From: Acidimicrobiales bacterium
GTDB lineage: Bacteria > Actinomycetota > Acidimicrobiia > Acidimicrobiales > SZUA-35
Direction of reading: 5' to 3'
Length of the DNA stretch: 61,178 nt
Assembly: GCA_038212405.1 (NCBI GenBank)
Contig: JBBQUN010000002.1
Span: 1-61,178 of the forward strand
A model generated the notes under the pieces. It saw only the letters and a list, made by a program, of their open reading frames with translations. It ran no database searches and had not been told where the DNA came from. This document shows positions 3-21,531 of this stretch, piece after piece (positions within the stretch are counted from its first letter, which is position 1; the number at the start of each line of letters is the position of its first letter). A program made the translations under genes and the position numbers.

Positions 3-239
3 CGTCGACAACCCGCCCGCTTCGCCAACATCTACTTCGACGCGCCCCGACCACCGGTCCAGGCCGTCCTCTGGCCCCCAGGCATCGAACACCACTGCAT
101 GCAACGACCTTCAGAAGCCGATCGGTGGATCGAGGCTAAGGTGGAACCATGCGTGGCCTGGAATCGAAGTCAGATGAAGTGTCGAAGCGAACCTACCAGT
201 CGCCGAAGCTGGAAGTCCTTGGCTCGGTCTCTGCGTTGA
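3..239 (+). CDS. Possible 3' end of an upstream gene entering from the left edge (function unknown)
   Basis: Frame 3 is open from the window edge, with clear G/C third-position bias over about nt 3-100 (..FANIYFDAPRPPVQAVLWPPGIEHH..). There is no stop until TGA 237-239, which would overlap the precursor gene. The bias fades after about nt 100, so the real end is unclear. Confidence 0.2.
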   Translation, partial: RRQPARFANIYFDAPRPPVQAVLWPPGIEHHCMQRPSEADRWIEAKVEPCVAWNRSQMKCRSEPTSRRSWKSLARSLR

Positions 240-319
240 CCGCGAGCGGTTCGGCCAACCAAATGGAGAATGACATGTCAAATCCGCCGCGGGTTGGGCC
301 TACCTTCAACATGGCCTAG
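149..319 (+). CDS. Lasso-peptide precursor A1 (56 aa)
   Basis: Not in the ORF track because it is under 60 aa. ATG 149 follows an AAGGTGGA Shine-Dalgarno; stop is TAG 317-319. Translation: MRGLESKSDEVSKRTYQSPKLEVLGSVSALTA / SGSANQMENDMSNPPRVGPTFNMA. The leader fits YxxPxLxxxGxxxxxTx exactly (Y16 to T31, Thr at -2). Core Ser1..Glu8 allows an 8-residue macrolactam. Third-position G/C bias supports this frame. Confidence 0.8.
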   Translation: MRGLESKSDEVSKRTYQSPKLEVLGSVSALTASGSANQMENDMSNPPRVGPTFNMA

Positions 320-2920: not shown

Positions 2921-3027
2921 CGGTTCAGTGTGGTTCCCCGGCGATCGGTCTGCACCTTCGTCGAGAGCGCAGCGGTCGAATGACCCACGTCGTTGTGACT
3001 GGGCCGGCGGTGCACCATCATGACGGC

Positions 3028-4731
3028 ATGAGGCGTGTCCTGGTCACCGCATTCCAGGTCACGTTTGCTTCCGCTCGCCGGCTGGTCGTCGTCTCCTTTG
3101 CGCTCGAAGTCGTCTCGGCGCTGGCGCTCGCCGTCCAGCTGTACCTGTTGTCGGTGTTGCTGCGCCGGGTGCTCGACACGGCGACTCCGTTCGATCGACT
3201 CGGTCTCGTGGTCTGGCCACTCTTGGGGGTCGTCGCCACGTTCCTCCTGAGCCGGGTGGCATCGGCCATCGTGCGGGAACTGCGGTGGACGATTTCCGAA
3301 ACGGTCGCCGCCGACATCGAACGGGGTGTCATCGCCAGAGCGGCCGCCGCACCGCTGATCGAGTTCGACGACCCCGAGTTCCACAACCGCATCGAACGAT
3401 GCCGCAACGATGCCGCAGACCAGGTGTGGATGGTCGTCTCGGGCTTCGTTGGGCTCACCCGAGGGCTGCTGTCGTCGATTGCGGTCGCCGTCGTGATGGC
3501 GAGCATCGCCATCGAGCTCCTTTTCATCGGTGCGCTGGCGTTGGTTCCGACCGCGCTCACGCTGTCGCTGGTCTCTCGTCGACGCTACGCCCTCTACACC
3601 GATCTGACGGAGAACCAGCGGGAGCGCGGCTACCTGGTCGATCTCCTCACACAGCGTGCCGGCGCCAAGGAAGCCCGCATCTACCGGACGGCGTGGTCGC
3701 TTCGACCGCGATACGACGCGCTGGTCACGAGCCGCATCGCGCAGCTCCGAGCCGACACACGCCGCCGGGTCGTGCTCATCGCCGCAGGCGACGTGATGGC
3801 CGTCGTCATTCTCACGGTCGCCTTGCTGGTCGCCCTCGGCTTCGTAGCCGACGGTCGCATCAGCACCAGTGACGGTGGTGTCGCCGTGGCTGCGCTGTTC
3901 CAGCTCGTCGGATTGCTCACCGCAGCGGGTTCGGGCGCCGCGTCACTGAGGGGATCCTCCTTCCACGTCGCCGACTACCAGGCCTTCATCGACGGCGCCC
4001 CACCTGCCCCCGAGCTGGAAAGGGGCGGCACATTCGAGACGCTCGAGTTCCGAGACGTGTCGTTCACCTACCCCGGTCGTGATCGGTCGGTCTTCCCGCC
4101 GCTGTCCTTCACACTGCGCCGGGGTGACCTGCTCCTCGTCCGCGGGCCCAACGGGTCTGGCAAGAGCACCCTCGTTGCCATGCTGTGTGGGCTGCTCGAA
4201 CCGAGCGAGGGCATGATCGTGCTCGACGGTGAACCTGTCGACGACCCCACCGAACTCGCACGACGGTGTTCATTGCTGTTTCAGGACTTCATCCGTTTCG
4301 AACTCGAGCTCGGGCACGGCATCGGCATCGAAGACCAGCAACCGGACCCGGCGCGACTGGCGTCCGCGCTCGAACGATCAAGAAGCGAAACGATCGTCGA
4401 CGCCTTTCCCGACGGCGTCCATCAGCGCCTCGGTCGCACCTTCGCCAGCGGCCAGGAGCTCTCGGGTGGGCAGTGGCAGCGGCTCGCGCTGGCCCGAGCC
4501 CTCTACCATCCGACCACCCCGGTGCTCGTTCTCGACGAGCCGACATCCATGCAGGACCGTGACAACACCGAGGTCATCCACGGCCTGATTCGCCGATTGA
4601 GCGGGGAACGGACGGTCGTTCTCGTCTCGCATCGAGACGTTGGCGAACTCCAAGCCGATCTCACCATCGAACTCGGTGTCGACGGTACCCGGGCTCGAAT
4701 GATCGAGAACGATCGGGGCGGGACGGCATGA
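3028..4731 (+). CDS. ABC transporter, fused permease/ATPase (lasso-type exporter), copy 1
   Basis: The N-terminal TM region is followed by Walker A GPNGSGKST, ABC signature LSGGQWQRLALARAL and Walker B VLVLDEPTS. I prefer start ATG 3028 (or 2980). The ORF-track start at 2812 overlaps the divergent B2 gene. Confidence 0.85.
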   Translation: MRRVLVTAFQVTFASARRLVVVSFALEVVSALALAVQLYLLSVLLRRVLDTATPFDRLGLVVWPLLGVVATFLLSRVASAIVRELRWTISETVAADIERGVIARAAAAPLIEFDDPEFHNRIERCRNDAADQVWMVVSGFVGLTRGLLSSIAVAVVMASIAIELLFIGALALVPTALTLSLVSRRRYALYTDLTENQRERGYLVDLLTQRAGAKEARIYRTAWSLRPRYDALVTSRIAQLRADTRRRVVLIAAGDVMAVVILTVALLVALGFVADGRISTSDGGVAVAALFQLVGLLTAAGSGAASLRGSSFHVADYQAFIDGAPPAPELERGGTFETLEFRDVSFTYPGRDRSVFPPLSFTLRRGDLLLVRGPNGSGKSTLVAMLCGLLEPSEGMIVLDGEPVDDPTELARRCSLLFQDFIRFELELGHGIGIEDQQPDPARLASALERSRSETIVDAFPDGVHQRLGRTFASGQELSGGQWQRLALARALYHPTTPVLVLDEPTSMQDRDNTEVIHGLIRRLSGERTVVLVSHRDVGELQADLTIELGVDGTRARMIENDRGGTA

Positions 4732-5509: not shown

Positions 5510-5794
5510 TCATTCGTTGGAGACCACCGCACCGAGATCGACGAGGTCGGCCATCACCTGTTCCATGTCGCTTCGGACAACATCGAGCGTGACATCAAAG
5601 ATCTCGACCAGTTCCTCCGCCAATTGCTCGACCGACACCGGTCGCTCGAGAGACGACCACACGATCGCCATCGGCGCTCCGAAGTGATTGACCTGGTCTT
5701 GCCCCGGTGGAATGAGAGCGACACCCTCGAGGACACGACGCCACAACACGTCGACCCGTCGTTGATACAACGGCGGTGCGTCTCGCTCAGTCAT
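5510..5794 (-). CDS. PqqD-family RRE protein, copy 2
   Basis: Start at MTERDAPPLYQRRVDVLWRRVLEGVALIPPG..VSVEQLAEELVEIFDVTLDVVRSDMEQVMADLVDLGAVV (PqqD pattern). Its ATG overlaps the stop of the upstream nucleotidyltransferase gene by 8 nt. Confidence 0.7.
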   Translation of the reverse strand: MTERDAPPLYQRRVDVLWRRVLEGVALIPPGQDQVNHFGAPMAIVWSSLERPVSVEQLAEELVEIFDVTLDVVRSDMEQVMADLVDLGAVVSNE

Positions 5795-6959
5795 CGAGCT
5801 GACCCCGTAGCTGCCTGACAGCTCGGCGAAGGTGACCTCGCTCGGTCCAACCTCGACTCTCGAGGTACTCCGGGCTGGGCCTGACGAGGGCATGAAGGTA
5901 CCGAGCCCGAGTCCGGACGCCGGGAATCACTGCCAGGGACGCGAACTGCGGCCAGTAGCCGCGTCCCTGGGTCGTGTAGCTACGAAGGAAGAGGACTTGG
6001 CGCCACGGCACCGACACGTCTGCGAGCCGTCGGATCGGATGATCGTCGGCCAGATCGAACGCCGCGATCGTTTCGACGGCGGCACGCCGGATCACGGCCT
6101 GGGCCTGCCAACGCCCACCCATCTCGATCAGGTCGTCCAGATGTTCGGGCCACCGTTCGACCAACAGCATCAAATCGCGCAACGAACCGAGCCGTGGCGG
6201 ATGGTTGCCGAGCGCCGCATCGAAGCATCCATGGATCAGCAGCCCCGTCGGGGTCAGCGTCGGGAGGGCTGTCCCGCCAATCGAGAAAATGTCAGATCCC
6301 AGGAAGAGTTCCTCGGGATCCATCGTCAGACCAAAGGGGCCCCGAGCGAACGTTCGGTGCACATCGACCTCGAGATCATCGACGCGGATCGTCACGTCTT
6401 TCGCGAACTCGAGATCGAAGCCAGTACGAACCTGGGCCTCTGGGCGAACACCGTCGAGATCGGACAGCAGGACCCGGATCGCTTCGTCGAGGTCATCGGA
6501 TCGGATGAGGATGTCGAGATCGACGAAGATCCGGTGTGATGGCTCCCCATACAGAAAATGGGCGAGTGCCACACCTTTCAGCATTCGGAAAGGAATGCTT
6601 GCCGAACCGAGCGCAGCAGCAACACGAAGGGTGGTCCGCTCCAGACGGAGCGAATGCGAGAGCCAGATGAGCAGCCGGTCGGACAAGCGGTCCATCAGGT
6701 CGTCGTCGAGTTCCCATTCCCCCCGCTCGATCGCGTCGCCGAGCGCGCCAAGGGTGCGGCTCCGTTCACACCGGTCGAGCAATTCGTCGAACTCGGCTGC
6801 GGTGAACTTCGCCGGTGGCTCGGGTACACCGCCTTGCAGTGGCATGGCGGCGATTGCGAGGAGCAGGCGATCGAGATCAGACCGCGCTGCGGGCGATCGT
6901 GTTCCTCGGATGGTCGAGGCGCCCATCCGGTCGATCATACTCGTGTCAATTGGGACCAC
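5787..6959 (-). CDS. Nucleotidyltransferase family protein (NTP_transf_5-like), copy 1
   Basis: 390 aa. Signature FRMLKGVALAHFLYGEPSHRIFVDLDILIRSDDLDEAIRVL (KG..a...Y....R...D.D.L), as in the uncharacterised nucleotidyltransferase family found in lasso clusters. Confidence 0.75.
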   Translation of the reverse strand: MVPIDTSMIDRMGASTIRGTRSPAARSDLDRLLLAIAAMPLQGGVPEPPAKFTAAEFDELLDRCERSRTLGALGDAIERGEWELDDDLMDRLSDRLLIWLSHSLRLERTTLRVAAALGSASIPFRMLKGVALAHFLYGEPSHRIFVDLDILIRSDDLDEAIRVLLSDLDGVRPEAQVRTGFDLEFAKDVTIRVDDLEVDVHRTFARGPFGLTMDPEELFLGSDIFSIGGTALPTLTPTGLLIHGCFDAALGNHPPRLGSLRDLMLLVERWPEHLDDLIEMGGRWQAQAVIRRAAVETIAAFDLADDHPIRRLADVSVPWRQVLFLRSYTTQGRGYWPQFASLAVIPGVRTRARYLHALVRPSPEYLESRGWTERGHLRRAVRQLRGQLDD

Positions 6960-7010: not shown

Positions 7011-7928
7011 TCAGAAGAGTTCGAGCGATCCGAGGCTGAGCGCCAGGTTGTCCAAGCTGGGCGTGTTCGCATTGGCGAGTGTCCGCCATGTGAGTCTCGG
7101 GCCCAGTGGTGGTGCGGGCACGAATCCGTCTCGGAGGCCGAGACCGGCACCGATGGCCACGTCCGCTCGTGCCTCTCGGAGTAGCGAACCGATCGGCAGC
7201 GACGGAGCAAACACATCGCAGATCGAGAGTTCTCGCACCGAACCCCGAGTGCGCAACCGCACCACGGCTTCATCGGTGAACCGGTAGCCAAGAGGAGAGA
7301 AGCCGTAGCGCCAAGCCAGGTAGTCAGCCGAGATGGGCGTATGCCACCCGCTCGGAGGGTTCCACCTGTCGGCCAGGGCGGCAAGGTCAGGCGAGTCGGT
7401 TCCGATGCCCGACGGTTCGCCCCACTTGCCAGCGGCGACTCTGCTTCGAAGCAGTCGTGGCAGGGCGGTGGCGCTGCGAGGCCGTACGGCGATCGGTGCC
7501 CGCCCGACATCGGTCCAGCCCATCTTCAGATAGCCGGGCCGAGACTGATCGTTCGGCGTGTTGAAAACGCCATCGAAGCCCTCGGCCGTCAAGCTCTCCA
7601 CTGCTGCCCTCGTGAGCTTCGTGAATATGCCCTTGCCCTGATGCGAGGGCAGTGTTGCGGTGTCGACGGCACGAACCATCTGGAGCGTTTGAGCTCCACG
7701 TGCGAGCTGCCAACGCATCATCACCCGCACGCCGACGATGTCATCGTGATCGACAGCGACCCAGATCGGCGAGGGCCCGAAGTGATTGTCGCGATGCTTC
7801 CACCGAAAGAAGTCGACGTTGGGGTCGCCCGGCTTCCAGCCGAGAGCAGCGCCACAGCAAGCGACAACTGCCTCGAACTCGTGGTCTTCGGCTTGTCGGA
7901 TCTCAACGTCGTCGGTCACGACCACCAT
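7011..7928 (-). CDS. GNAT-family N-acetyltransferase
   Basis: 305 aa. The acetyl-CoA binding region reads MVRAVDTATLPSHQGKGIFTKLTRAAVESL (Q/RxxGxG/A motif). It lies on the same strand upstream of nucleotidyltransferase 1. Confidence 0.7.
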   Translation of the reverse strand: MVVVTDDVEIRQAEDHEFEAVVACCGAALGWKPGDPNVDFFRWKHRDNHFGPSPIWVAVDHDDIVGVRVMMRWQLARGAQTLQMVRAVDTATLPSHQGKGIFTKLTRAAVESLTAEGFDGVFNTPNDQSRPGYLKMGWTDVGRAPIAVRPRSATALPRLLRSRVAAGKWGEPSGIGTDSPDLAALADRWNPPSGWHTPISADYLAWRYGFSPLGYRFTDEAVVRLRTRGSVRELSICDVFAPSLPIGSLLREARADVAIGAGLGLRDGFVPAPPLGPRLTWRTLANANTPSLDNLALSLGSLELF

Positions 7929-8064: not shown

Positions 8065-8616
8065 CTAGATCGGGGTACAGACCGCTACGTCGTCGTCGTC
8101 GGTACAGATGACGGTGAATCGGAACTGCGAGCTGGCGTTGCCACTCGACTTCAGCACGGTCGGCACGCTGATCGACACCGTGCCACCGGCGGGGTTGATT
8201 ACGGTATTCGTGGCAATCACCGAGCCGGCGCCGTTCCCCCCGGCCCGCTGGTAAATGCGGAGAATACAGCTGGCGTTCACGAAGCCAGTGGTGACGGTGA
8301 TGGTCGAGACCCCGTCTGCGCAGATACCGGAGGTCGTGACACCGGTAAGCCCATTCAAGTTTGCCATCAGCTTGGTGATCGTTGTGGTTTCGCTTGCGCC
8401 GCTGCCACAACTTCCTCCCTGATTGCTGGGCTCCCATGTCGAGTCGAACGACTGCACGGTGCCACTGCACACAGCGGCGTAGGCCGGACTGGTTCCGAGG
8501 ATTCCGACCCCGGGACCTGCCCATGCTGCAACGCCGACACCGGTTGCAACACCGAGTTTGAGTATCGACCGGCGGTCGGTCTGCTTCGCGTTCGATGACT
8601 CTGTCATTTCGTCCAC
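8065..8616 (-). CDS. Tat-signal secreted protein with six Cys, unknown function
   Basis: The N-terminus has the twin-arginine motif TDRRSILKLGVATGVGVAAWA and a likely AYA cleavage site. The mature part of about 135 aa is Thr/Ser/Gly-rich and beta-like, with 6 Cys. I recognise no family motif. Confidence 0.6.
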   Translation of the reverse strand: MDEMTESSNAKQTDRRSILKLGVATGVGVAAWAGPGVGILGTSPAYAAVCSGTVQSFDSTWEPSNQGGSCGSGASETTTITKLMANLNGLTGVTTSGICADGVSTITVTTGFVNASCILRIYQRAGGNGAGSVIATNTVINPAGGTVSISVPTVLKSSGNASSQFRFTVICTDDDDVAVCTPI

Positions 8617-8706
8617 CCCAGATTCTCCCGCCAGGCACAGCCACCTAGAGTGGCAAAGCTACTGCAGGAACAGTGGGGATGCAACGATCGGCTAGCGTCA
8701 AGCACA

Positions 8707-8994
8707 ATGACTCATGAGTATCGGCGAGTTGCCTCGCCATTTCGAGCGATCGACTCGATGGTCCTCGTCTACAGCCCCTCGCAACAAGAGGTCGTGGTTC
8801 TCTCTGAACTCGCCGCAGCAGTGTGGCAGCTGCTCGAAGTACCGCGAAGCAGCGAGCAGCTTGTCGCAGCAATCGACGGCGGCGGCATCGCCGGCCCCAC
8901 TACGCAGAGCGTCGGGTTGGTGCTCAATACCATCAAGTCCCAAGTCGATGGCGCGTTGAGGAACCTTCGGAAGGTCGGACTTGTCCACCCGTGA
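8707..8994 (+). CDS. PqqD-family RRE protein, copy 3
   Basis: ATG 8707 lies inside ORF 8650..8994. Sequence: MTHEYRRVASPFRAIDSMVLVYSPSQQEVVVLSELAAAVWQLLEVPRSSEQLVAAID...ALRNLRKVGLV. Its 3' end overlaps the next gene by 14 nt. Confidence 0.65.
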   Translation: MTHEYRRVASPFRAIDSMVLVYSPSQQEVVVLSELAAAVWQLLEVPRSSEQLVAAIDGGGIAGPTTQSVGLVLNTIKSQVDGALRNLRKVGLVHP

Positions 8995-10060
8995 ACAGCT
9001 CTTCGCCCTGGCGGCTCGAGCGGCGGTAGGTCATGTTGACCTGCCGATCTCGATCGATGACGCTGCGATACCGGCAATCGTCGCGCTGGCAGGAAACGAG
9101 CGGTTGCTGCCGCTCGCCGCTCACGGGTTGCAGCACCTTCCCGACGAGTGGAAGCCCGACGGCTGGGACGAGCTCGTGTTTGCAACAGCTCGTGATGCGG
9201 TCCTCATCGAGGCGAGCATGCTCGAAGCGCACGGCCTCTTGAGCGCCGACGGCATTCGGGTCATGGCGATCAAAGGCATCGCCACTGCGCATCTCGACTA
9301 CGACGACCCTGGTCTGCGCCAGGTCGGCGACGGCGATATCCTCGTCCCGTACCAGCAGCATCTCGATGCCATCGACATCTTGAGCGGTGCCGGATGGATT
9401 GCGCCATCGGCAACGCTGCCGAGTCACCGCGACGCAGTGCACGCCGTTCCGATGCGAGGCCCACTCGGCCGAGACGTCGACGTTCACCAGCATCTCGCGC
9501 CACGAGCGCTCGGTGTGCTTCTGGATCAAGCCGATTTTTTCGCCCACGCAACGACCTTCGAGTTGGGCGACACCCGACTCGGGGCGCCATCGGTGGCCCA
9601 TCGCCTCCTCCACGCCGCCGTGCATTACGAGGCATCGCCGGGTCGTTACAAGCGACTCTCCGGGCTGGTCGATGTCCTCTTGATAGCCCACCGTCACGCG
9701 GTCAACTCAAGCGAACTATGTGCGACCGCCGACGAGTTGGGATTGAGGTTCCTCCTCGAGCGTGCTCTGCGGCGAGCGTCGGCACTCAGCGGGCTCGCCC
9801 TGCCCGCCGAATGGGTCGACGCATTTGCTCGTCCGTGCGCAAAGCCGGATCGGCTCCTCGTCGCCGCTTACAACGGCGAGACACGGCGACCGGTACTTGA
9901 AGAACTGGCGTACATACGACTCGCCGGCGGTCCGGTCGACAAGGTCCGTTACCTCTCGGGCTACTTTCGAACCGATGCCGCCTACCGGGAACGATTCCAG
10001 CGAGGCGGGCTGTGGTCACAAGCTCGCTACCTGGCTTCTCGTGTGCGATCACGGTCTTGA
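8981..10060 (+). CDS. Nucleotidyltransferase family protein (NTP_transf_5-like), copy 2
   Basis: 359 aa with a TTG start. Signature VMAIKGIATAHLDYDDPGLRQVGDGDILVPYQQHLDAIDIL. Confidence 0.75.
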   Translation: MSTREQLFALAARAAVGHVDLPISIDDAAIPAIVALAGNERLLPLAAHGLQHLPDEWKPDGWDELVFATARDAVLIEASMLEAHGLLSADGIRVMAIKGIATAHLDYDDPGLRQVGDGDILVPYQQHLDAIDILSGAGWIAPSATLPSHRDAVHAVPMRGPLGRDVDVHQHLAPRALGVLLDQADFFAHATTFELGDTRLGAPSVAHRLLHAAVHYEASPGRYKRLSGLVDVLLIAHRHAVNSSELCATADELGLRFLLERALRRASALSGLALPAEWVDAFARPCAKPDRLLVAAYNGETRRPVLEELAYIRLAGGPVDKVRYLSGYFRTDAAYRERFQRGGLWSQARYLASRVRSRS

Positions 10061-10744: not shown

Positions 10745-11095
10745 TCAAGGACTCGGCGGGTCGAAGAACGTCGGGTTGTCGGGCCACGCCCCTTCGATCG
10801 TTTCAGCGTCGGCGAGCAGACCTTCGAGACGGAGGAGTTGCTCCACACGAAGAACCTCGCCGATCGCCACATCTCTCATCACTCCTACCTCGGCGACGAC
10901 ATCGTTGACGAGGTCGCCCATTTGTCCTTCGCCGTCGAAGCAACGGGCGAGGATGGATGCGACAGGATCGAGAAGGACGGGCGCCGGTCGATTCGACGCC
11001 CACGCGATCGACTCGGTGTCGAACGCGCGCACCAGCACGTCCGTTGCCAACGTTGGAACAGCTCGATCCTCGAAGTTCGGTTTTCGGCGGTTCAT
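10745..11095 (-). CDS. PqqD-family RRE protein, copy 4
   Basis: 116 aa. Sequence ..VLLDPVASILARCFDGEGQMGDLVNDVAEVGVMRDVAIGEVLRVEQLLRLEGLL.. fits the PqqD pattern. It has an ATGA start/stop overlap with the upstream kinase gene (11092-11095). Confidence 0.6.
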   Translation of the reverse strand: MNRRKPNFEDRAVPTLATDVLVRAFDTESIAWASNRPAPVLLDPVASILARCFDGEGQMGDLVNDVVAEVGVMRDVAIGEVLRVEQLLRLEGLLADAETIEGAWPDNPTFFDPPSP

Positions 11096-12261
11096 CCTGT
11101 GCGCAATCCCTTCTGCTCGAGTTCGACGAGGAGTCGCTCTGTCCGTTCATCGGCCCCGCCGTCGCAGAACCTGACCCAATCACGTGTATGTTCCGCGTCG
11201 AGCGCAACGAACTGCATCGACGAGTCGATGAGGAGACTCGCCCCATCGATCTCGAGCATCGAGACACCCGCAGTTCGGCCGGTGGTCGAGGCCGCTCGCC
11301 ATTGGAGGGCTCCCGGGCGTCTCGGGCCAGACAGGTGGATCTCGAGCGCTTTCTCCACCGATTCGAGTGCACCTGAGCGAAGACGGATTGCGGTAGCCGC
11401 AGCCAAGAGACGACCGAGTGACAGCACACCGCCGAGGCCGGCGCGCTCAGCGTCCATCACGTGGTCCCGCATCACCTCGACCAACGCATCGATTGGGTGC
11501 GCGATCGACAGCTCCAAAGAATCAACACTGCCGGGCCCCGGTTGGAGTAGCACGATCAGCCCAACCGGGTGGTCATCGGCGCTGACGCGTCCCAGTGCAG
11601 AAGCTCGAACGAGTCGGCCCGCCCCGTGCTGTCGGATGGGAAGACCGTGATCGGCAAGTGTCGGCAGCAGATCGAGGGTGCCGGAGCGAAGGGCGACGGG
11701 TTTCGGGTAGGTCGAGATCTGCGGACTGTCCGAATCGATCGCCACCATCTCGTCCGACAGATAGCACCAGCCGGACTGGAGAAGGTGAGCGGACAGCGTC
11801 GACTTTCCCGTGCGCCGCTTGCCGAGCACCAGAGCGGCGGCGCCGCCACGAGCAAGCGCGGCGGCGTGAAGATGCATTCGCCCCTCATCAGATGCCAAGG
11901 AAAGGCGATTCACCTCTCGCGCAACAGCCCAGAGCGCGTCGGCAATCGAATCGACTTGACGCCAACACCCGTCGAACAAATCGACCATGACGGCCGAGTC
12001 GGCGACGTCGATCGTGGCCGTCGCCAACGGTTGCCGACTCATTGTGTCGGGGTGGCTCACGAGGTCACCGAATACGGCGATCGCCACCTCGACCACCGCT
12101 TGGTCGTTCGACGCAATCTCGAAGACGAACGCGGTCGACGCAAATGCCGGTGTGCGGCTCGGCCGGCTGTCAGGGGGCCTCATGGACCCAGCAATCGCTC
12201 GCAATAGTGTGCGACCATCGATGTCCCTGGCCGGTAGGTCCGAGCCCGGTCGCACGCACAA
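11092..12261 (-). CDS. HPr-kinase-like putative peptide kinase, copy 2 (long form)
   Basis: 389 aa. Motif pattern: LHAAALARGGAAALVLGKRRTGKSTLSAHLLQSGWCYLSDEMVAID (P-loop plus acidic pair). Confidence 0.75.
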   Translation of the reverse strand: MCVRPGSDLPARDIDGRTLLRAIAGSMRPPDSRPSRTPAFASTAFVFEIASNDQAVVEVAIAVFGDLVSHPDTMSRQPLATATIDVADSAVMVDLFDGCWRQVDSIADALWAVAREVNRLSLASDEGRMHLHAAALARGGAAALVLGKRRTGKSTLSAHLLQSGWCYLSDEMVAIDSDSPQISTYPKPVALRSGTLDLLPTLADHGLPIRQHGAGRLVRASALGRVSADDHPVGLIVLLQPGPGSVDSLELSIAHPIDALVEVMRDHVMDAERAGLGGVLSLGRLLAAATAIRLRSGALESVEKALEIHLSGPRRPGALQWRAASTTGRTAGVSMLEIDGASLLIDSSMQFVALDAEHTRDWVRFCDGGADERTERLLVELEQKGLRTG

Positions 12262-13092: not shown

Positions 13093-13123
13093 GCGTCAAA
13101 CCCAGAGCGGGAAGTTGGAGGGT

Positions 13124-13279
13124 ATGTCTATGAACTACGAATCACCATCAATCCGTGAGCTCGGCCGAATCGCCGAACTCACGCTTGGCCAAAACGGAAC
13201 ATCACTCGACGGCAATCGGTCGTACACGCAAACGGGTGGCGGCAACAATGAGGACGATCCGACGGACGACACGCCCTGA
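13124..13279 (+). CDS. Lasso-peptide precursor A2 (51 aa)
   Basis: ATG 13124 sits 3 nt after GGAGGG; the track shows a longer TTG-started 71-aa version. Translation: MSMNYESPSIRELGRIAELTL / GQNGTSLDGNRSYTQTGGGNNEDDPTDDTP. The leader fits YxxPxIxxxGxxxxxTx with the same spacing as A1. Core Gly1..Asp8 allows an 8-residue macrolactam. Confidence 0.8.
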   Translation: MSMNYESPSIRELGRIAELTLGQNGTSLDGNRSYTQTGGGNNEDDPTDDTP

Positions 13280-13287
13280 TCGCCGTC

Positions 13288-14982
13288 TCATGTGGCTCTG
13301 AGCCAACGATCGATCGAGACTAGCGAAGATGCCGGGATCACTGATCCCGGCATCTTCGCTTTTGCCGCATCGACGAGTCGATCCACCGCCTCGCCATCGA
13401 CCTCAGCAAGCTCGCGTACCGGGCCGTGTCGCGCCAACTCCAGCGTCCCCCCGGGCAGAGAAGCCCACGCCGTCGCCGAAAACTCGGCCTTCGTGGTGCG
13501 ATTACGGACGTTCTCGGGCAGCCGAGGACCAAAGGCAACGCGTTGGAGTGAGCGATCGGCGCCACACCTCCTCGGCCAGCCGGGAGGGAGACCGTAGGTC
13601 GCTTCGATGAGATCGATATCGAAGAAGGGGTGCGTGAGTCTGATGTCGAGGGGATCGGTGACGACGGCGAGGTCCTCCAATAGCCGAGTGATCCACCCAT
13701 CTCGAAGCATCTCGGACCGCCGGTCGATCGCGGGGTCACTCGTGTCACGGACCGCCGGACCGATCACCCGGCGCTCGATGCCGAGGTCTCGGCGGTACGC
13801 CGGCTCGAGCAGCGACAAGCCGAACGACGCGCTTCGTCGGCGCCACGCCAGCTCGGCGACCACCGGTCGTACCAGCAGGGGCCAGGTGGCTCGAGGGTGA
13901 GCGGTGATCCACCGGCCAAGCCGAGCGAGTTCCGCACGGTCGCCGGTACGAAGGGCGGAGAGAACTCGAGGGCCGACGAGTTGTGCGCCGAACGCATCGT
14001 CACCCCCCAAACCCGTGACCACCGTGGTGGCGCCCTGTTCTCGAAAACCGGAATGCAGCGATCGAGCCATCAAGCCGTTCGGTGGTGGAGGCGGTACTCG
14101 CCACTCAGCTACGAAAACATCGAGCCACGCCGGGCCGGCGAGAAACGGCGGAGCGTCGAGCAGCGGAAGGCCAAGGTGTCGGGCGACGGCATCGGAGTAC
14201 TTCCGCTCGTCCGCACGTTCGTCGTCGAAGACGATCCGGCCCAGGATCATGGCATCGGTCATCGAACTCGCGGTTGCCGCGACACTCGACGAGTCGAGTC
14301 CGCCGCTCACCTCGAATGCGGTCGTCTCGCCGATCGCCAGCCGCATGCGCACGGCGTCGTCGAGCAGGGAGCGGACTTCCTCGATGGCCTTCTCCCAGGA
14401 GATCGATCGTCGCTGGATCCGGGGTCGACGGGTTGCGCGGACCGATGGGATCGCGCTGCTGGGGACGGTGAGGGCGGTGCCCGGCAAGAGCCGCGTCACA
14501 CCGAGGTGGACGGTTCGGTCCTCGTGGCCGAGCGGGCCGGCCAGCATCTCGGCGATCGTGTGATGATCGGGACGTCGATCCACCCACGAGTTGGCGAGGA
14601 TGTCTCGTTGGAGGGGACTGGCGACCATTCGACCGCTGCCGGCAGCGAAGAAGCAGGGGCGAGCGCCGATCGGGTCTCGGGCAATCGTGATCGTCTCGGC
14701 GCGCCGGTCGGCGACGATCAGAACGAAGTCGCCCTTGATCGACTCGAGCCACGCACGTCGCCCGCAGACGCTCGACACCCAGGTGGCGTCGTCCGACGCA
14801 GCACCCGTCCGATGGATCGAACCGTCGACCAGAACCCATCGCTCGTCGTCCGCCGCAACATGAATCCATTTCGATGTCGAACGCCACGCAATGGTGGCCC
14901 AGCCGAGATCGATCGTTTCGTCGAGCCCGTCGGGAATGCGGTGCGTCCGGTCAGGTCCGACCTGGACGTACCAATCGCTCAT
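13288..14982 (-). CDS. Lasso-peptide cyclase (asparagine synthetase B-like, lasso C)
   Basis: Start MSDWYVQVGPD at 14982, an ATGA overlap with the B2 stop. The PP-loop motif is FEVSGGLDSSSVAA. The N-terminal glutaminase-like domain lacks the N-terminal Cys, as in lasso cyclases. This is the only such gene in the window. Confidence 0.85.
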   Translation of the reverse strand: MSDWYVQVGPDRTHRIPDGLDETIDLGWATIAWRSTSKWIHVAADDERWVLVDGSIHRTGAASDDATWVSSVCGRRAWLESIKGDFVLIVADRRAETITIARDPIGARPCFFAAGSGRMVASPLQRDILANSWVDRRPDHHTIAEMLAGPLGHEDRTVHLGVTRLLPGTALTVPSSAIPSVRATRRPRIQRRSISWEKAIEEVRSLLDDAVRMRLAIGETTAFEVSGGLDSSSVAATASSMTDAMILGRIVFDDERADERKYSDAVARHLGLPLLDAPPFLAGPAWLDVFVAEWRVPPPPPNGLMARSLHSGFREQGATTVVTGLGGDDAFGAQLVGPRVLSALRTGDRAELARLGRWITAHPRATWPLLVRPVVAELAWRRRSASFGLSLLEPAYRRDLGIERRVIGPAVRDTSDPAIDRRSEMLRDGWITRLLEDLAVVTDPLDIRLTHPFFDIDLIEATYGLPPGWPRRCGADRSLQRVAFGPRLPENVRNRTTKAEFSATAWASLPGGTLELARHGPVRELAEVDGEAVDRLVDAAKAKMPGSVIPASSLVSIDRWLRAT

Positions 14983-15440
14983 CGCAGATCCGATGGCAAC
15001 GTACCCAGGTCGGCGCCCGTCGCAATCACCGTGTAGCTGCCAACTGCTTCCGGATCGTCGTTGACCACGGTCGTACCGATCTGGACCCATGCGTGGGCTT
15101 CGACGCTGCCGGAAGTGTTTCGAACTCCGATGACCAGCTCGGCAGCGCTGCCGTGGCGTTCCAATTCGCGCAGTAGCGTCACGGAACGTCGCAGACAGGT
15201 CGGGTGCAGCGGCAGCAACGCGAACGCGCCGTCAATCCGCTCGGCCAGCTCGACGCCCTTGGCGGTCGTGCCGGGCGGCAGGGTCTCGTCGAGCTTCTCG
15301 AGGATCGGGCGCAGGCCTCCGCGCCGTAGCTCGAGCGACGTGCGGCCGGCCCTCCACGCCAACCGGAGCGTCTGCCGGTCGACGAAGGCTGCTGCGATCA
15401 GCGCCCGGAGAGTGGCAGGCAGCCCTGCCTCAGCTCCCAA
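14979..15440 (-). CDS. Lasso-peptide B2 leader peptidase (transglutaminase-like), copy 2
   Basis: 153 aa. Signature PTCLRRSVTLLRELERHG...GSVEAHAWVQIGTTVVND (Cys/His). Confidence 0.85.
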   Translation of the reverse strand: MGAEAGLPATLRALIAAAFVDRQTLRLAWRAGRTSLELRRGGLRPILEKLDETLPPGTTAKGVELAERIDGAFALLPLHPTCLRRSVTLLRELERHGSAAELVIGVRNTSGSVEAHAWVQIGTTVVNDDPEAVGSYTVIATGADLGTLPSDLR

Positions 15441-15690
15441 TCGCGAGTCCTCTCGCCAGTAACTCGGCGACGAGTTTGTCGAAGTCGGCGGCGAGGCGTT
15501 CCGGGTCGACGTCGGGAAAGCGCCCGGTGATGGTCGCGAGCGCTGTTTGACGATCGACGTGGGTCGTTCCGACTTCCCACATGAAGGCCGCAGTCGAGTT
15601 CAGTTCGAGATACATCTCGTTGTTGGAATCGAGTACGACCATCTCGTTGTTCACTCGCCGGGCAAAAACGCCTCTCGGTGCCGAAATCAT
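15430..15690 (-). CDS. PqqD-family RRE protein, copy 5 (lasso B1 of the C/B2 operon)
   Basis: Sequence: MISAPRGVFARRVNNEMVVLDSNNEMYLELNSTAAFMWEVGTTHVDRQTALATITGRFPDVDPERLAADFDKLVAELLARGLAI. ATG 15690 lies 8 nt after GGAGGGA; the maximal ORF reaches 15729. It overlaps the B2 start by 11 nt. Confidence 0.75.
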   Translation of the reverse strand: MISAPRGVFARRVNNEMVVLDSNNEMYLELNSTAAFMWEVGTTHVDRQTALATITGRFPDVDPERLAADFDKLVAELLARGLAIGS

Positions 15691-15768
15691 CGTTGTTCCC
15701 TCCATGTCTCCACCCGTCGGCCGTTTCACCCATCCATCAAGGAGTCACATGCCAGTATTCTCCGCCCT

Positions 15769-17556
15769 GTGACCGAGCACCAGACGACCAGTGTGTTCGA
15801 TGCGCTTCGGATGGCCTTGGGTTTCGTCTGGCGGAGCGCTCGCTGGACGCTGGTCATGCTCGCGCTTGCCCAGGTGCTCGCGGCGCTGGCGCTCCTCATG
15901 TTGCTGCTGTCGGTTCGATCGCTGATCGCCGGGCTCGAGGCCGGTGACCAACTGAGTTCGGTCACCTCGTCGGTCGTCGTCTCGTCGCTTGCGTTCCTCG
16001 TGATCGGTGTGGTGGGTGTCGGCTCACAGTCGCTGCAGCTCCTCATGGCGGAGAAGACGAACCGCATCGTGCAGCATGACATCATGCAGATCGCCGTTGG
16101 CGTGCCCTACTCGAGCTACGAAGATCCGGGCTTCCACGATCTGCTCGAGCGGACGACGCAGCGGACGGGAAACAGCTCCCTCCGACTGGTCGGCGGTGTG
16201 CTGACCATCCTCGAGTCGGTCGCCGGGATGTGTGCCGTTGCCATCGCGCTGGCGCGTACCGTGCCGGCGCTGCTTCCGATTCTGCTCGTGGTTGCGCTGC
16301 CGCTGCTCGTCGCTTCCCGAGTCGGCGCACGCATCAACTACCAGATGGCGCTCGAAGTGACCACCGACGATCGGCTGCGTCGATCGATGTTGCTTGCGCT
16401 CACGAGCAAACAGACGGCGCGGGAGGCCCGGACGCTCGGGTTGGGGGCATCACTCGGCACGCGGTGGGATCGGCTCTGGGATCAGCGCATCGCCCTCGTG
16501 CGATCGTTCGCGCTGCGCCGCATGTTCGTCTTGGCCGCGGCCGCCACGCTGTCGGCCTTGATGACCGGCGGCGTGCTCTTCGTGCTGGTGCGAGCAACGG
16601 CGAACGGGACGATCGGTCTCGCCGACGCCTCGGTGGCGGTGTTGGCGTTCCAGCAACTGCTGCAGCGCACCCGCTCCACCGCTCAGGCGACAGGGAACTT
16701 GCGGGAGTCCGCCCTCTTCCTCAGCGACTTCGAATCCCTCGACCAGTACCGGCGGCCCGCTCTTGACGACGGTCTGGCGCTCCCGACGCCCGAGGTGGTG
16801 TCGTTCGAGGATGTCTCGTTTCGATATCCGGGTGGACGGGGCGATGTGTTGGTCGGGACGAGCTTCGAGCTGCGCAGAGGCGAGATGACGGCGCTGGTGG
16901 GTGCCAGTGGGGCTGGCAAGTCGACCCTCGTCCACCTCTTGGCCGGCCTGTATCAGCCGATGACGGGACGGATCCTGTGGGACGGCGCCGACCTTGCCGG
17001 TGTGGACGATCGTGATCGTTGGCGGTCCACCGCGGTGACGTTCCAGGATTTCGGTCGCTTCGACCTCACCGCCAAGGAGAACGTCGAATTGGGAGACGCC
17101 GCTCGCAACGATGCCGAGGCGCTCCGGCACTCGATGGCGGTCGCCGGGATCAGCGACGTGGTCGAGCGTCTCCCCAGCGGCTTGGACACGTTCCTGAGCC
17201 GACTCTTTCCCGGGGGAACCGAGCTCTCTGTGGGGCAGTGGCAACGGCTGGCCGTGGCGCGAGCGCTGTATCGGCGCGCCGCGCTGTTGATCCTCGACGA
17301 GCCCTCGGCGGCCCTGGATGCCGAGTCCGAGGTCGAGTTGATCGATGCGTTGCGGGCCGAGTGCGACGAGCGAGTCGTGCTCGTCGTCTCTCATCGATTC
17401 AGCACGGTGCGTCGAGCAGACCGCATTCTGGTGCTCGACGCTGGTCGCATCGTGGAAGACGGCAGCCACGATGACTTGATGGGCCTCGACGGTCGCTACG
17501 CCCGACTGTTCCGACTCCAGATGGCCGAACCGCCGGCTGCAGTCGACCCTGGCTGA
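15769..17556 (+). CDS. ABC transporter, fused permease/ATPase (lasso-type exporter), copy 2
   Basis: GTG 15769 is in frame with ORF 15547..17556. TM domain, then Walker A GASGAGKST, signature LSVGQWQRLAVARAL and Walker B LLILDEPSA. Confidence 0.85.
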   Translation: MTEHQTTSVFDALRMALGFVWRSARWTLVMLALAQVLAALALLMLLLSVRSLIAGLEAGDQLSSVTSSVVVSSLAFLVIGVVGVGSQSLQLLMAEKTNRIVQHDIMQIAVGVPYSSYEDPGFHDLLERTTQRTGNSSLRLVGGVLTILESVAGMCAVAIALARTVPALLPILLVVALPLLVASRVGARINYQMALEVTTDDRLRRSMLLALTSKQTAREARTLGLGASLGTRWDRLWDQRIALVRSFALRRMFVLAAAATLSALMTGGVLFVLVRATANGTIGLADASVAVLAFQQLLQRTRSTAQATGNLRESALFLSDFESLDQYRRPALDDGLALPTPEVVSFEDVSFRYPGGRGDVLVGTSFELRRGEMTALVGASGAGKSTLVHLLAGLYQPMTGRILWDGADLAGVDDRDRWRSTAVTFQDFGRFDLTAKENVELGDAARNDAEALRHSMAVAGISDVVERLPSGLDTFLSRLFPGGTELSVGQWQRLAVARALYRRAALLILDEPSAALDAESEVELIDALRAECDERVVLVVSHRFSTVRRADRILVLDAGRIVEDGSHDDLMGLDGRYARLFRLQMAEPPAAVDPG

Positions 17557-18416
17557 CGCCGGAACACCCGGTCGAGCCCTGCCCTGACATCGCTCGGCGG
17601 CAGGAAGGCCAGGACGGCCACGATCATGATCGGCGTGAAGATGCCGACTCGGAGAAAGATCGCAAAGACGAGATGGAGCGCCACCGAGGTGGCGACGCCT
17701 ACACGTGGTCGAGTCACGAGCAGGATCGGCAGCACCAACTCGGTGAGCAGCACCAGGTAGGTCAGGGCGGTGGTGCCGAGGACGGTCTCACTGAGCAACG
17801 AGGGCATCGGCACCGACGCGACGCTCGGGTTGTGCAGCGCGGCATACACCGCTTCGCCCTGTCGCCACGTCGATCCTTGGAGCTTCCAGATCACGCTCGT
17901 GCAATAGACCACGATGACCTGGAGCCGGACCGATGCGACGAACAGCCGTGGTCGCTCGCGACCGGGAGCGGAGAGATTCCCGGTCAGGGTGGAGTGTGAA
18001 CCCAGGAACAGGGCAACGACGGCCCACATCAGGATCAGGCGGAGGAGCTGGTCGCCGGCGTTGATCGCGGCGGGCTGGAGTCGTTGGATCGACGTCACAC
18101 CGATGAACGCGATGACCACGCCGATCCGCGATGCTCGCCCGAGGGTCAGCGAGACACCGACGGCGGCGATGCCGAGGAGCACCAGAGTCACCCACCAGGC
18201 TGGGGAGCCGGCGAAGAACAGGGTCCAACTGAATCGACGGCCGGCTTCGGTGGGGAAGATCGACGAGTCGGAAAGGAGGGAGCGGGCGTCGAGGAGCCAC
18301 GAGAGTGACCACCAGCAGATCAACGCACCGAGGAGCGTTCTGACGAGCACCTCGGTATCTGGCTGCTCGGCGGCGAAGAATCGGCGGTGGAGCTGGCCGA
18401 GGATCGTGGTCGTCAC
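17496..18416 (-). CDS. HTTM-domain (vitamin-K-dependent gamma-carboxylase-like / SdpB-like) membrane protein
   Basis: 306 aa, polytopic. Pattern: LVRTLLGALICWWSLSWLLDARSLLSDSSIFP ... RLQVIVVYCTSVIWKLQGSTWRQGEAVYAAL ... LTELVLPILLV...ALHLVFAIFLRVGIFTPIMI, as in HTTM/SdpB-family proteins. Confidence 0.65.
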   Translation of the reverse strand: MTTTILGQLHRRFFAAEQPDTEVLVRTLLGALICWWSLSWLLDARSLLSDSSIFPTEAGRRFSWTLFFAGSPAWWVTLVLLGIAAVGVSLTLGRASRIGVVIAFIGVTSIQRLQPAAINAGDQLLRLILMWAVVALFLGSHSTLTGNLSAPGRERPRLFVASVRLQVIVVYCTSVIWKLQGSTWRQGEAVYAALHNPSVASVPMPSLLSETVLGTTALTYLVLLTELVLPILLVTRPRVGVATSVALHLVFAIFLRVGIFTPIMIVAVLAFLPPSDVRAGLDRVFRRQPGSTAAGGSAIWSRNSRA

Positions 18417-19889: not shown

Positions 19890-20891
19890 TCAGCTGACGA
19901 TGAGCCTGCGAGATTGGTAGGCGAGATAGCGGAGTCGGTTTCGGGTGCTCGTCTGATTGGCGAGAACCGCGATGGTCTCGCGGGCGACGCTCCGACTCGT
20001 CCGCAGGTAGGCGCGGTTGATGGCGGACTTGGAGATTCGTGGCGGCGGTGGAGGCTCGGGGTTTCCGATGGCCACCGCCAGCCACCGAGCCACCGAGACC
20101 AGGTCGATGATGCCGAACAGGCGCGCCAGATCGTCGACGCGATCTTCGTCGAGGTCTTGGCGTGTTTGGATGAGGGCGACGTCGACCAGCGACGAAAGCC
20201 GTCGGTGCTCGGGCGGTGACAAGAAGAGGTGCCCGGCTGCGTGGACGAGCCGGCCTGCAGGGTCGAGCGCATGGCCCAACTCGTTCGGTAGCGGCATCAA
20301 CTGACCGTACAGCTCCTTCGAGCCGTGAGGCCCGAAGCGGAACAGGCGATGGTGCACATCGAGTTCGATGCCGCTCGGCGTTCGAAAGGTCTGCTCGACG
20401 AGGAGGTCGGTCGGTTCACCCGCCTTCAAGGGTTCGTAGTGTTGGCCGAGTGTCTGGCACGCCCGAGCGAAATCGCCGTCAGGCACGAGGAGGTCGACAT
20501 CACCAGTGTGGCGAACCGCGCCGGCGGGGTAGTCGAGGTGTGACGTGGCGAGACCCTTGAGGATCACTGCGTCGACGCCGATTTCCGCGAGTTGGTTGAC
20601 GGTTCGGCGGGCAGCCGAGGTGAGGTGGAGAGCGAGGACGGTGACGTTGTGGGCTTCGTCGGCGGTGTCACCGAGAGCGGTCAACAGCGATCGGATCCTG
20701 TGCCGTTCGGCAAAGGCGAGCAGAGGCGGTGTGAGCTGGAGGTCGAGCGTGGTCGCACCCGCCAGGTGATCGATGCAGGCGCGCACCAACTCTGCGCCGC
20801 CAACCGGGGCGGCCTCGTCGACGAGTCGGATTGGGTCGGTACGTATCTGCGGCGAAAGATGCACACTGCCAGGTCTTGTCGAGGAGGTCAT
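19890..20891 (-). CDS. Nucleotidyltransferase family protein (NTP_transf_5-like), copy 3
   Basis: 333 aa. Signature AVILKGLATSHLDYPAGAVRHTGDVDLLVPDGDFARACQTL. Its ATG overlaps the stop codon of the upstream sugar phosphotransferase gene (ATGA at 20888-20891). Confidence 0.75.
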   Translation of the reverse strand: MTSSTRPGSVHLSPQIRTDPIRLVDEAAPVGGAELVRACIDHLAGATTLDLQLTPPLLAFAERHRIRSLLTALGDTADEAHNVTVLALHLTSAARRTVNQLAEIGVDAVILKGLATSHLDYPAGAVRHTGDVDLLVPDGDFARACQTLGQHYEPLKAGEPTDLLVEQTFRTPSGIELDVHHRLFRFGPHGSKELYGQLMPLPNELGHALDPAGRLVHAAGHLFLSPPEHRRLSSLVDVALIQTRQDLDEDRVDDLARLFGIIDLVSVARWLAVAIGNPEPPPPPRISKSAINRAYLRTSRSVARETIAVLANQTSTRNRLRYLAYQSRRLIVS

Positions 20892-21526
20892 CGCCTTGGC
20901 GATTCGGCGCCCATGAACTCCTCGGCGCCGATGGACATGCCTTCAGCCGCAACGCCTTCGCCCTTGAGCACGACCTTCACGGTCTTGATGATGATCTGAA
21001 GGTCGAGTCGCAGGCAATGGCGCTCGACGTACTCGACATCCAGCGCGAAGCGGTCGTCCCACGACAAGTGGTTGCGGCCGCTCGTCTGCGCCAAACCGGT
21101 GAGACCGGGGCGAACCTCGTGGCGCCTTGCTTGTTCGGGTGTGTAGCGGTCGAGGTAGCGCATCAGTAACGGCCGGGGTCCAACGAGGCTCATGTCGCCC
21201 CGAAGGACGTTCAACAGCTCCGGCAACTCGTCGAGGCTCGTGCGACGCAATCGTTCGCCGAAGGGATGGGTTCGTTCGGCGTCGGGAAGTAGCTCACCGT
21301 CGGGTGCGACGGCCGAGGTCATGGTGCGGAACTTGAGGAGTTCGAAGGGTTCACCGTGCAGCCCCGGGCGGGTCTGGCGGAACAGCACCGGCGAGCCGAG
21401 CCGAGTTCGCACGAGTAGCCCTACCACCATCAGCACTGGCGCAGCAATCACGAGCGCTGCGCCGCTGACGACGATGTCGATCGCTCGTTTGAAAGCACGT
21501 TGTGCTGTTCGACCGGGTGACGACAT
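20888..21526 (-). CDS. Small monotopic phosphoglycosyl transferase (bacterial sugar transferase, PglC/WbaP-C-terminal type)
   Basis: ATG 21526 (MSSPGRTAQRAFKRAIDIVVSGAALVIAAPVL..). Motifs present: PVLFRQTRPG, LLKFRTM, RRTSLDELPELLNVLRGDMSLVGPRP and RPGLTGLAQ. The 94 Arg-rich codons upstream in the 306-aa ORF overlap the next gene and are rejected. Confidence 0.85.
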   Translation of the reverse strand: MSSPGRTAQRAFKRAIDIVVSGAALVIAAPVLMVVGLLVRTRLGSPVLFRQTRPGLHGEPFELLKFRTMTSAVAPDGELLPDAERTHPFGERLRRTSLDELPELLNVLRGDMSLVGPRPLLMRYLDRYTPEQARRHEVRPGLTGLAQTSGRNHLSWDDRFALDVEYVERHCLRLDLQIIIKTVKVVLKGEGVAAEGMSIGAEEFMGAESPRR

Positions 21527-21531
21527 CGGGG

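Follow-up and report, generated by a model that had tools for sequence, protein, structure and literature searches.

A 56-codon gene at the edge of an Acidimicrobiales contig is the probable precursor of a new lasso peptide, encoded beside an HprK-like kinase and a PRMT-fold methyltransferase

We analysed contig JBBQUN010000002.1 of an Acidimicrobiales bacterium (assembly GCA_038212405.1); the window is the entire contig of 61,178 nt. Close to its 5' end lies an open reading frame (ORF) on the plus strand, here called A1 (149–319), which starts with ATG, ends with TAG at 317–319 and comprises 56 codons that read MRGLESKSDEVSKRTYQSPKLEVLGSVSALTASGSANQMENDMSNPPRVGPTFNMA. An earlier, sequence-only reading of this DNA had given exactly this translation. 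Our analysis makes it very probable that 149–319 is a genuine gene and that it encodes a new lasso peptide precursor; lasso peptides are bacterial peptides of ribosomal origin with a knotted shape. The cluster type around it, seen in Acidimicrobiia-like bacteria, is little studied and includes both a kinase and an unusual enzyme resembling arginine methyltransferases. The ORF was missing from the six-frame track used previously; the ORF lister has a default minimum of 60 aa, and A1 (56 aa) appears when the minimum is set to 30 aa, which may explain the omission. A Shine–Dalgarno-like AAGGTGG, read from the sequence at 138–144 (+), lies 4 nt 5' of the ATG, in agreement with the good ribosome-binding site claimed before, and AAGGTGGAAC is common to the regions upstream of the A1 ATG and of the GTG start of the nearby gene B1. 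A scan of positions 1–1400 for promoters found no promoter-like site, and a scan of the same region for terminators found one terminator-like site, within chance. The spacer between A1 and the downstream kinase gene folded no better than shuffled sequence (z = +1.26), giving no support for an attenuator hairpin.

The codon usage of A1 resembles that of a translated gene. Its three codon positions have GC contents of 0.53/0.47/0.72, as in genuine neighbouring genes, whereas the overlapping frames (99–239 on the plus strand and 111–281 on the minus strand) have a third-position GC content (GC3) of 0.51–0.53; the third-position bias ascribed to A1 earlier is thus present. Another frame (+3, 3–239, stop at 237–239) is open from the 5' end of the contig into the first 91 nt of A1, and no close homologue of A1 turned up in the protein database. 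Both facts would suit the view that A1 is a chance open frame that is not translated and that the true coding sequence is the +3 frame or one of the minus-strand frames. Against this view, the +3 frame has coding-like GC periodicity in its first ~120 nt only, and beyond ~135 GC3 tracks the frame of A1 rather than +3.

The N-terminal 32 aa of A1 (149–244, +; MRGLESKSDEVSKRTYQSPKLEVLGSVSALTA) were delimited as a leader peptide by a regular expression, the NCBIfam model NF033521 and a family hidden Markov model (HMM) described below. Tyr-17, Pro-14, Leu-12 and Thr-2 stand in the canonical register, the leader also has Gly-8, and the strict expression Y..P.[LIVM]...G.....T. matches at 194–244; the residue-for-residue fit to the lasso recognition motif reported by the sequence-only reading is exact. 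In the six frames of the window, this expression has two matches, A1 and a second precursor, A2, both small ORFs beside lasso genes, against a chance expectation of 0.1 by mononucleotide shuffles and 0.04 by residue shuffles. With the curated model NF033521 (lasso_leader_L3), A1 reaches 20.4 bits, where 19 is the cutoff. According to PMC10368454, Y-17, P-14 and L-12 serve B1 binding and T-2 serves processing. In A1, the register around the cleavage site reads YQSPKL...LTA|S, and the YxxPxL register and the Thr-2 rule independently place cleavage at one point, before Ser1.

The remaining 24 aa (245–316, +; SGSANQMENDMSNPPRVGPTFNMA) form the core, with Ser1, Glu8 (codon 266–268) and a 16-residue tail, as stated in the sequence-only reading. 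Lasso rings comprise 7–9 residues (PMC8498205), the macrolactam being closed by an acidic residue, Asp or Glu, at one of positions 7 to 9; the A1 core offers Ser1 and the acidic Glu8. The predicted Ser1–Glu8 macrolactam, an 8-residue ring with a 16-residue tail, is supported because all 10 syntenic family cores carry Glu or Asp at position 8. One of these, from the locus L003, begins SGSIAGME and thus repeats the SGS...ME frame of A1 (SGSANQME), so that the ring proposed earlier from a single sequence is now backed by a family. Candidate tail plugs, judging from the sequence, are R16, F21 and M23. For the dehydrated core we calculate a monoisotopic mass of 2533.078 Da ([M+2H]2+ 1267.547), to which each phosphate would add 79.966 and each methyl 14.016. 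Lasso peptides with Ser at position 1 are known, caulonodins IV–VII among them, but they are uncommon. String searches for the core and the leader gave no match in the literature searched, and the A1 core is a previously unreported lasso core.

The genes next to A1 are those expected of a lasso cluster, since B1, B2, an HprK-like kinase and an ABC exporter all lie with it inside 4.7 kb. The kinase gene (386–985, +; alternative TTG start at 374) encodes a short-form HprK-related kinase of 199 aa with weak hits to Hpr_kinase_C and TIGR04352. B1 (990–1277, −; GTG start at 1277) encodes a 95-aa PqqD-like recognition element for RiPPs (peptides made on ribosomes and modified after translation), with matches to PF05402 (4e-11) and NF033530 (2.9e-11). 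It is followed by a gene for an S-adenosylmethionine (SAM)-dependent methyltransferase of 391 aa (1323–2498, +) that has the fold of protein arginine methyltransferases (PRMTs), hits to PrmA, Methyltransf_25 and PRMT_C, and an extra C-terminal three-helix region. B2 (2450–2920, −) encodes a 156-aa transglutaminase-like leader peptidase (PF13471, 5.9e-11; NF033537, 47.3 bits against a cutoff of 33), and the D gene (3028–4731, +; start uncertain within 2980–3028) encodes an ABC exporter (ABC_tran, 5e-24) that is MsbA-like over its full length. A B1 of the PqqD type and a B2 of the transglutaminase-like protease type, both expected beside a lasso precursor, are thus present at A1.

The same arrangement recurs in other genomes. 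Orthologues of the methyltransferase are ~60% identical to it, and three are found in metagenome-assembled genomes of Ilumatobacteraceae (class Acidimicrobiia). Profile scans with the methyltransferase alignment returned one locus in metagenome contigs and three in genome contigs, most of the context coming from contigs that encode the orthologues. The comparison set (L002–L015) includes 10 distinct loci that cover the precursor region. Their order is ABC exporter (−), cyclase (+), small ORF (+), kinase (+), B1 (−), methyltransferase (+) and B2 (−), except that two loci have the order kinase, small ORF, cyclase, B1, methyltransferase, B2; the block of kinase, B1, methyltransferase and B2 is syntenic in 10 related loci. 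Identity between the window proteins and those of the related loci is 51–63% for the methyltransferase (45% on one short fragment), 42–61%, mostly 50–57%, for B1, 42–49% for B2, about 31–40% for the kinase and 31–35% for the ABC exporter.

A small ORF with a lasso leader occupies the position of A1 in 10 of the 10 loci that cover the region, and in three of them (L012, L014 and L015) gene callers had already annotated it, with lengths of 46–53 aa. The cores mostly begin [G/S]-G-S-x-x-x-M-E, and otherwise ...M-A-D. A family HMM built from nine of these precursors, with A1 excluded, was run over every stop-to-stop segment of the window with 25 aa or more, 1187 in all. A1 ranked first (E = 3.3e-11), with an alignment that runs from the leader through Glu8; A2 ranked second (E = 8.7e-6), and no other segment fell below 0.5. 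The invariant leader residues Y, P, L, G, L and T use 2–3 synonymous codons each across the loci, indicating selection on the protein, and substitutions across the loci number 715 at third, 566 at first and 487 at second codon positions. In the seven loci examined for this feature, the upstream cyclase stops 37–110 nt short of the precursor start, so the overlapping frame is not conserved while the small ORF is; the sequence-only reading would have been contradicted by the reverse. Together with the GC3 course, the curated leader model and the match to an HMM built without A1, this conservation makes an untranslated chance frame barely credible.

Three further features of the related loci were observed. 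In L004/L005 (GCA_942492715.1, CALOFW010000002.1; ~8560–8733), the core reads GGSLGDDGGDGDGG... as against GGSLGQMEGMGMGMG... in the near-identical L006 (412–576), relative to which it appears frameshifted, and the cyclase gene beside it falls into two ORFs; we take both for assembly indel errors rather than biology. Met and Gly are conspicuously frequent in the cores of L002–L015 (GMGMGMGEG, AAMTAMMRN and GGMRMD are examples), and several tails are very short (5–8 residues) and carry no aromatic residues. Lasso clusters with this type of methyltransferase recur among polysaccharide and envelope genes (Wzz/ParA-type, DUF4012, glycosyltransferase and Polysacc_synt genes), as seen in the flanks of L002, L003, L009, L013 and L015.

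Our results thus provide four independent lines of evidence that A1 is a lasso precursor, namely the match to NF033521, the B1, B2, kinase and ABC neighbours, the synteny over 10 loci and the A1-free HMM, and they uphold the interpretation first offered by the sequence-only reading. We consider it likely that A1 is translated and encodes a lasso precursor of class II (cysteine-free), a member of a small and so far uncharacterised precursor family from genomes of the Acidimicrobiia type (Ilumatobacteraceae-like). Several points weigh against this reading. A word-index homologue search with A1 over 5.8 billion proteins returned A1 itself and no close relative, and the leader has LEVLG where the family consensus is LQRLG. 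No cyclase gene stands next to A1 on the contig, whose end is 148 nt upstream; in that interval the plus strand has a single open frame, +3, which overlaps A1 by 91 nt; and neither tblastn with six family cyclases nor an HMM of cyclase C-termini gave anything significant in these 148 nt. Arg occurs in only about half of the family cores, which speaks against it as the common acceptor of the PRMT-like enzyme, and A1 and most family members have no C-terminal Ser, so that a phosphorylation site can be assigned only by analogy.

The missing cyclase deserves closer consideration. Every related locus covering the region has a cyclase gene immediately beside the precursor gene, and because of this synteny we expect the cyclase of A1 just upstream; most probably it is encoded past the 5' end of the contig. 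The +3 frame contains R-x6-W-I-E at 105–134, a short motif likeness to the R-x6-WLE found 2–16 residues before the cyclase stop in six of the seven related loci examined (L013 has LWLE without the Arg). This is suggestive that the first ~135 nt of 3–239 may be the 3' end of the cognate cyclase gene, in which case the frame may represent a cyclase end whose stop codon has been lost or shifted. A tblastn search of all loci with the translated upstream fragments, of which the minus-strand one was uninformative, gave nothing significant.

The alternative is that A1 is real but is cyclised by the distant C2 (13288–15090, −), or is an orphan that has lost its own cyclase, with no cyclase upstream. 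C2 is the sole Asn-synthase-like gene on the 61-kb contig, A1 and the A2 precursor next to C2 both predict 8-residue rings, their leaders share Y-x-S-P...L-G...L-T, and positions 1–148 carry no significant cyclase signal. In contrast, C2 is only 25–29% identical to the family cyclases and is accompanied by its own B1', B2' and A2, from which A1 is expected to have a cyclase of its own. The flanking cyclase in every related locus covering the region and the R-x6-WIE in the +3 frame point the same way. We therefore reject C2 as the orthologous cyclase of A1 and regard this alternative as a whole as unlikely, and we favour a cognate cyclase just beyond the contig end.

The cluster around C2 is a second, self-contained lasso cluster. 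It comprises the A2 precursor (~13112–13263, +; leader MSMNYESPSIRELGRIAELTL, core GQNGTSLDGNRSYTQTGGGNNEDDPTDDTP), which scores 23.8 bits with NF033521 and has a predicted Gly1–Asp8 ring and an acidic 22-residue tail; C2, which is convergent with A2 and preceded by B2' (14979–15440, −; NF033537, 68.9 bits) and B1' (15430–15729, −); and a second ABC exporter gene (~15800–17556, +). Between the two lasso clusters (5510–6959, −; 8650–10060, +; 11092–12261, −; 7011–7928, −) lie two pairs of PqqD-like and NTP_transf_5 genes, a second HprK-related kinase gene (TIGR04352, 1.3e-14) and a GNAT acetyltransferase gene. The NTP_transf_5 and GNAT genes have homologues in related loci, and the whole group may serve in additional tailoring. 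Further along are an HTTM/SdpB-like gene and an ORF, ~4 kb downstream from the second cluster, whose product resembles a bacterial sugar transferase, judged by eye from its translation and not by a family model (17496–18416, −, and ~20888–21808, −).

The methyltransferase is a constant part of the A1-type cluster, its orthologues sitting between B1 and B2 wherever a related locus extends over this position. Its profile matched PRMT1, PRMT3 and PRMT6 in the PDB (E about 4e-21, positions 2–272). An AlphaFold 2 (AF2) model (predicted local distance difference test score, pLDDT, of 76) matched PRMT6 and PRMT3 by Foldseek with E = 1e-24 and a target template-modelling (TM) score of 0.76–0.81, and the protein has the two domains, Rossmann and β-barrel, of the type I PRMT fold. 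The loops that hold the guanidinium group in PRMTs are not conserved. In HMMER alignments, the first Glu of the double-E loop aligns with an invariant Asp105, the second aligns with Val, with Glu113 one position earlier, and the THW loop aligns with G-R-F; residues 107–112 are modelled at low confidence. In place of the double-E loop there is an invariant DQxGGxAHE, and a helical extension of ~70 aa follows at the C-terminus.

Given these differences in the double-E and THW loops, we refrain from classing the enzyme among arginine methyltransferases. Core Arg methylation was considered as the conserved role of the enzyme and rejected, since roughly half of the family cores contain no Arg and the guanidinium-binding loops are not conserved. 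In the literature searched, no PRMT-type enzyme was linked to lasso peptides; the sole co-mention concerns, by its title and abstract, an unrelated compound. The A1-type cluster family, with its fixed PRMT-fold enzyme, may prove a new tailoring variant.

The kinase belongs to a large group, with 7902 relatives at E ≤ 1e-3, and does not have the ~110-residue N-terminal region present in most of them. Its catalytic motif is intact: H8, G28-K29-S30-T31 and D46-D47 do not vary across an alignment of 19 relatives. A word-index search with the kinase gave a single match, on a 1.5-kb contig that begins at the gene and so offers no upstream sequence, and a look-up of the exact product from the start at 374 found nothing. 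According to PMC10368454, the motif of the lasso kinase BsfK is H148/K169/S170/D186/D187, and BsfK phosphorylates Ser3 of a Gly1–Asp8 precursor that has no C-terminal Ser. The H-to-K (21) and K-to-D (17) spacings of the window kinase equal those of BsfK, a likeness in motif spacing rather than in compared sequence. Ser3 is present in A1 (SGS) and in eight of 10 family cores; residue -2 of A1 is Thr, as against Ile or Val in the BsfA type. Kinases of the paeninodin type act on a strictly conserved C-terminal Ser (PMC9266682). A1 ends in ...FNMA, and only three of 10 family members have a C-terminal Ser; phosphorylation of a C-terminal Ser was rejected for A1, which ends in Ala. By analogy with BsfK, Ser3 is most likely the phosphorylation site, and we offer it as a best guess.

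From the gene content we infer the following maturation pathway. B1 would bind the A1 leader, and the kinase, taken to be co-transcribed, would probably phosphorylate the precursor before leader removal, with Ser3 favoured on the BsfK model. The B2 cysteine protease (2450–2920, −) would cut after Thr-2/Ala-1 and free Ser1, whereupon an Asn-synthetase-like cyclase would adenylate the side chain of Glu8 and join it to the Ser1 α-amine around the tail. The product would be an 8-residue ring with a 16-residue tail, plugged by R16 and/or F21. The PRMT-fold enzyme, which like the kinase probably modifies the peptide, would add one or more methyl groups at a site that is so far not predictable from sequence, and the ABC transporter (~3028–4731) would export the product.

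The peptide might instead be made and processed yet stay unthreaded, as a branched-cyclic or linear modified peptide with phosphate and methyl groups as its main features. Several family tails are very short and have few bulky residues (NMGDA, GASGMGMT and GGSGMGKP), which seem poor locks for a ring, and the extra tailoring genes (kinase, methyltransferase and NTP_transf_5) are conserved. The A1 tail, however, has 16 residues including Arg16 and Phe21; B1, B2 and the cyclase make up the canonical lasso set; and known lasso cyclases fold the peptide and close the ring in one step. We therefore judge an unthreaded product very unlikely for A1 and prefer a threaded lasso as the predicted product.

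A broader proposal can be put forward tentatively, as somewhat less probable than its opposite. The A1 family may form a distinct Acidimicrobiia lasso subfamily, with Met-rich cores, an 8-residue [G/S]-G-S-x-x-x-M-E ring and an obligatory PRMT-fold methyltransferase whose methylation chemistry is undescribed for lasso peptides and possibly uses a non-arginine acceptor, combined with phosphorylation of ring Ser3 by a truncated HprK-like kinase. If this is true, the methyltransferase is a bacterial PRMT-fold enzyme acting in RiPP tailoring.

This study also bears on lasso peptide discovery. A1 adds an unreported core with a minority Ser1–Glu8 ring from a poorly cultured actinobacterial lineage, and its recovery illustrates that motif and context together can find genes shorter than common ORF-length thresholds. 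Lasso precursors are routinely found by genome mining, and the more unusual content here is the uncharacterised tailoring enzymes. The cluster family, with the order cyclase, precursor, kinase, B1, methyltransferase, B2, is coherent: the PRMT-fold enzyme and the HprK-like kinase are fixed components, and the precursors mostly have no C-terminal Ser. It opens two questions to direct test, namely the site of action of lasso kinases that do not target a C-terminal Ser and the methylation target of a bacterial PRMT-like enzyme on a RiPP. The predicted masses, together with the 10 orthologous clusters, are a ready set for heterologous expression.

Comparison with other systems places A1 among, and apart from, described lasso peptides. 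A close counterpart is L003 (JGI metagenome 3300076002, contig Ga0645779_00826), itself uncharacterised, which has the same order of cyclase, precursor, kinase, B1, methyltransferase and B2, a short-form kinase (208 aa), the leader YAKPSLQRLGTVKGLTA and a core start giving the same Ser1...Met7-Glu8 ring frame; its tail (VGSMATTEMG) is unrelated and shorter. Caulonodins IV–VII reportedly resemble A1 in that they belong to class II and have a ring that begins with a residue other than Gly (Ser or Ala) and closes on a Glu. They are said to differ in their proteobacterial origin, fused B proteins, lack of tailoring enzymes, Ser1–Glu9 ring and unrelated cores.

Among systems with tailoring enzymes, lassomycin/StspM (C-terminal O-methyl ester) and cellulonodin-2/lihuanodin (aspartimide derived from a protein isoaspartyl methyltransferase, PIMT) share with the A1 cluster an in-cluster SAM-dependent peptide methyltransferase, but theirs are small-molecule O-methyltransferase-like or PIMT-like (PMC9266682), whereas that of A1 has the two-domain type I PRMT fold. 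The paeninodin/ThcoK systems resemble the A1 cluster in the split B1 and B2, the HprK-related tailoring kinase acting on the linear precursor and, often, a nucleotidyltransferase; they use a conserved C-terminal Ser (PMC9266682), whereas A1 ends in Ala. The bsf system of Bradymonas sediminis, as far as the available text of PMC10368454 describes it, shares with A1 the YxxPxL leader, a predicted 8-residue ring, Ser3 and the absence of a C-terminal Ser, and its cluster likewise contains an HprK-like kinase with H...GxxGxGKS...DD and nearby 'N' genes of the NTP_transf_5 type. BsfA has Ile at -2 and a Gly1–Asp8 ring, in contrast to the Thr at -2 and the Ser1–Glu8 ring of A1. The same text describes no PRMT-like methyltransferase in the bsf cluster, which also comes from a different phylum, and the window kinase differs in being a short form.

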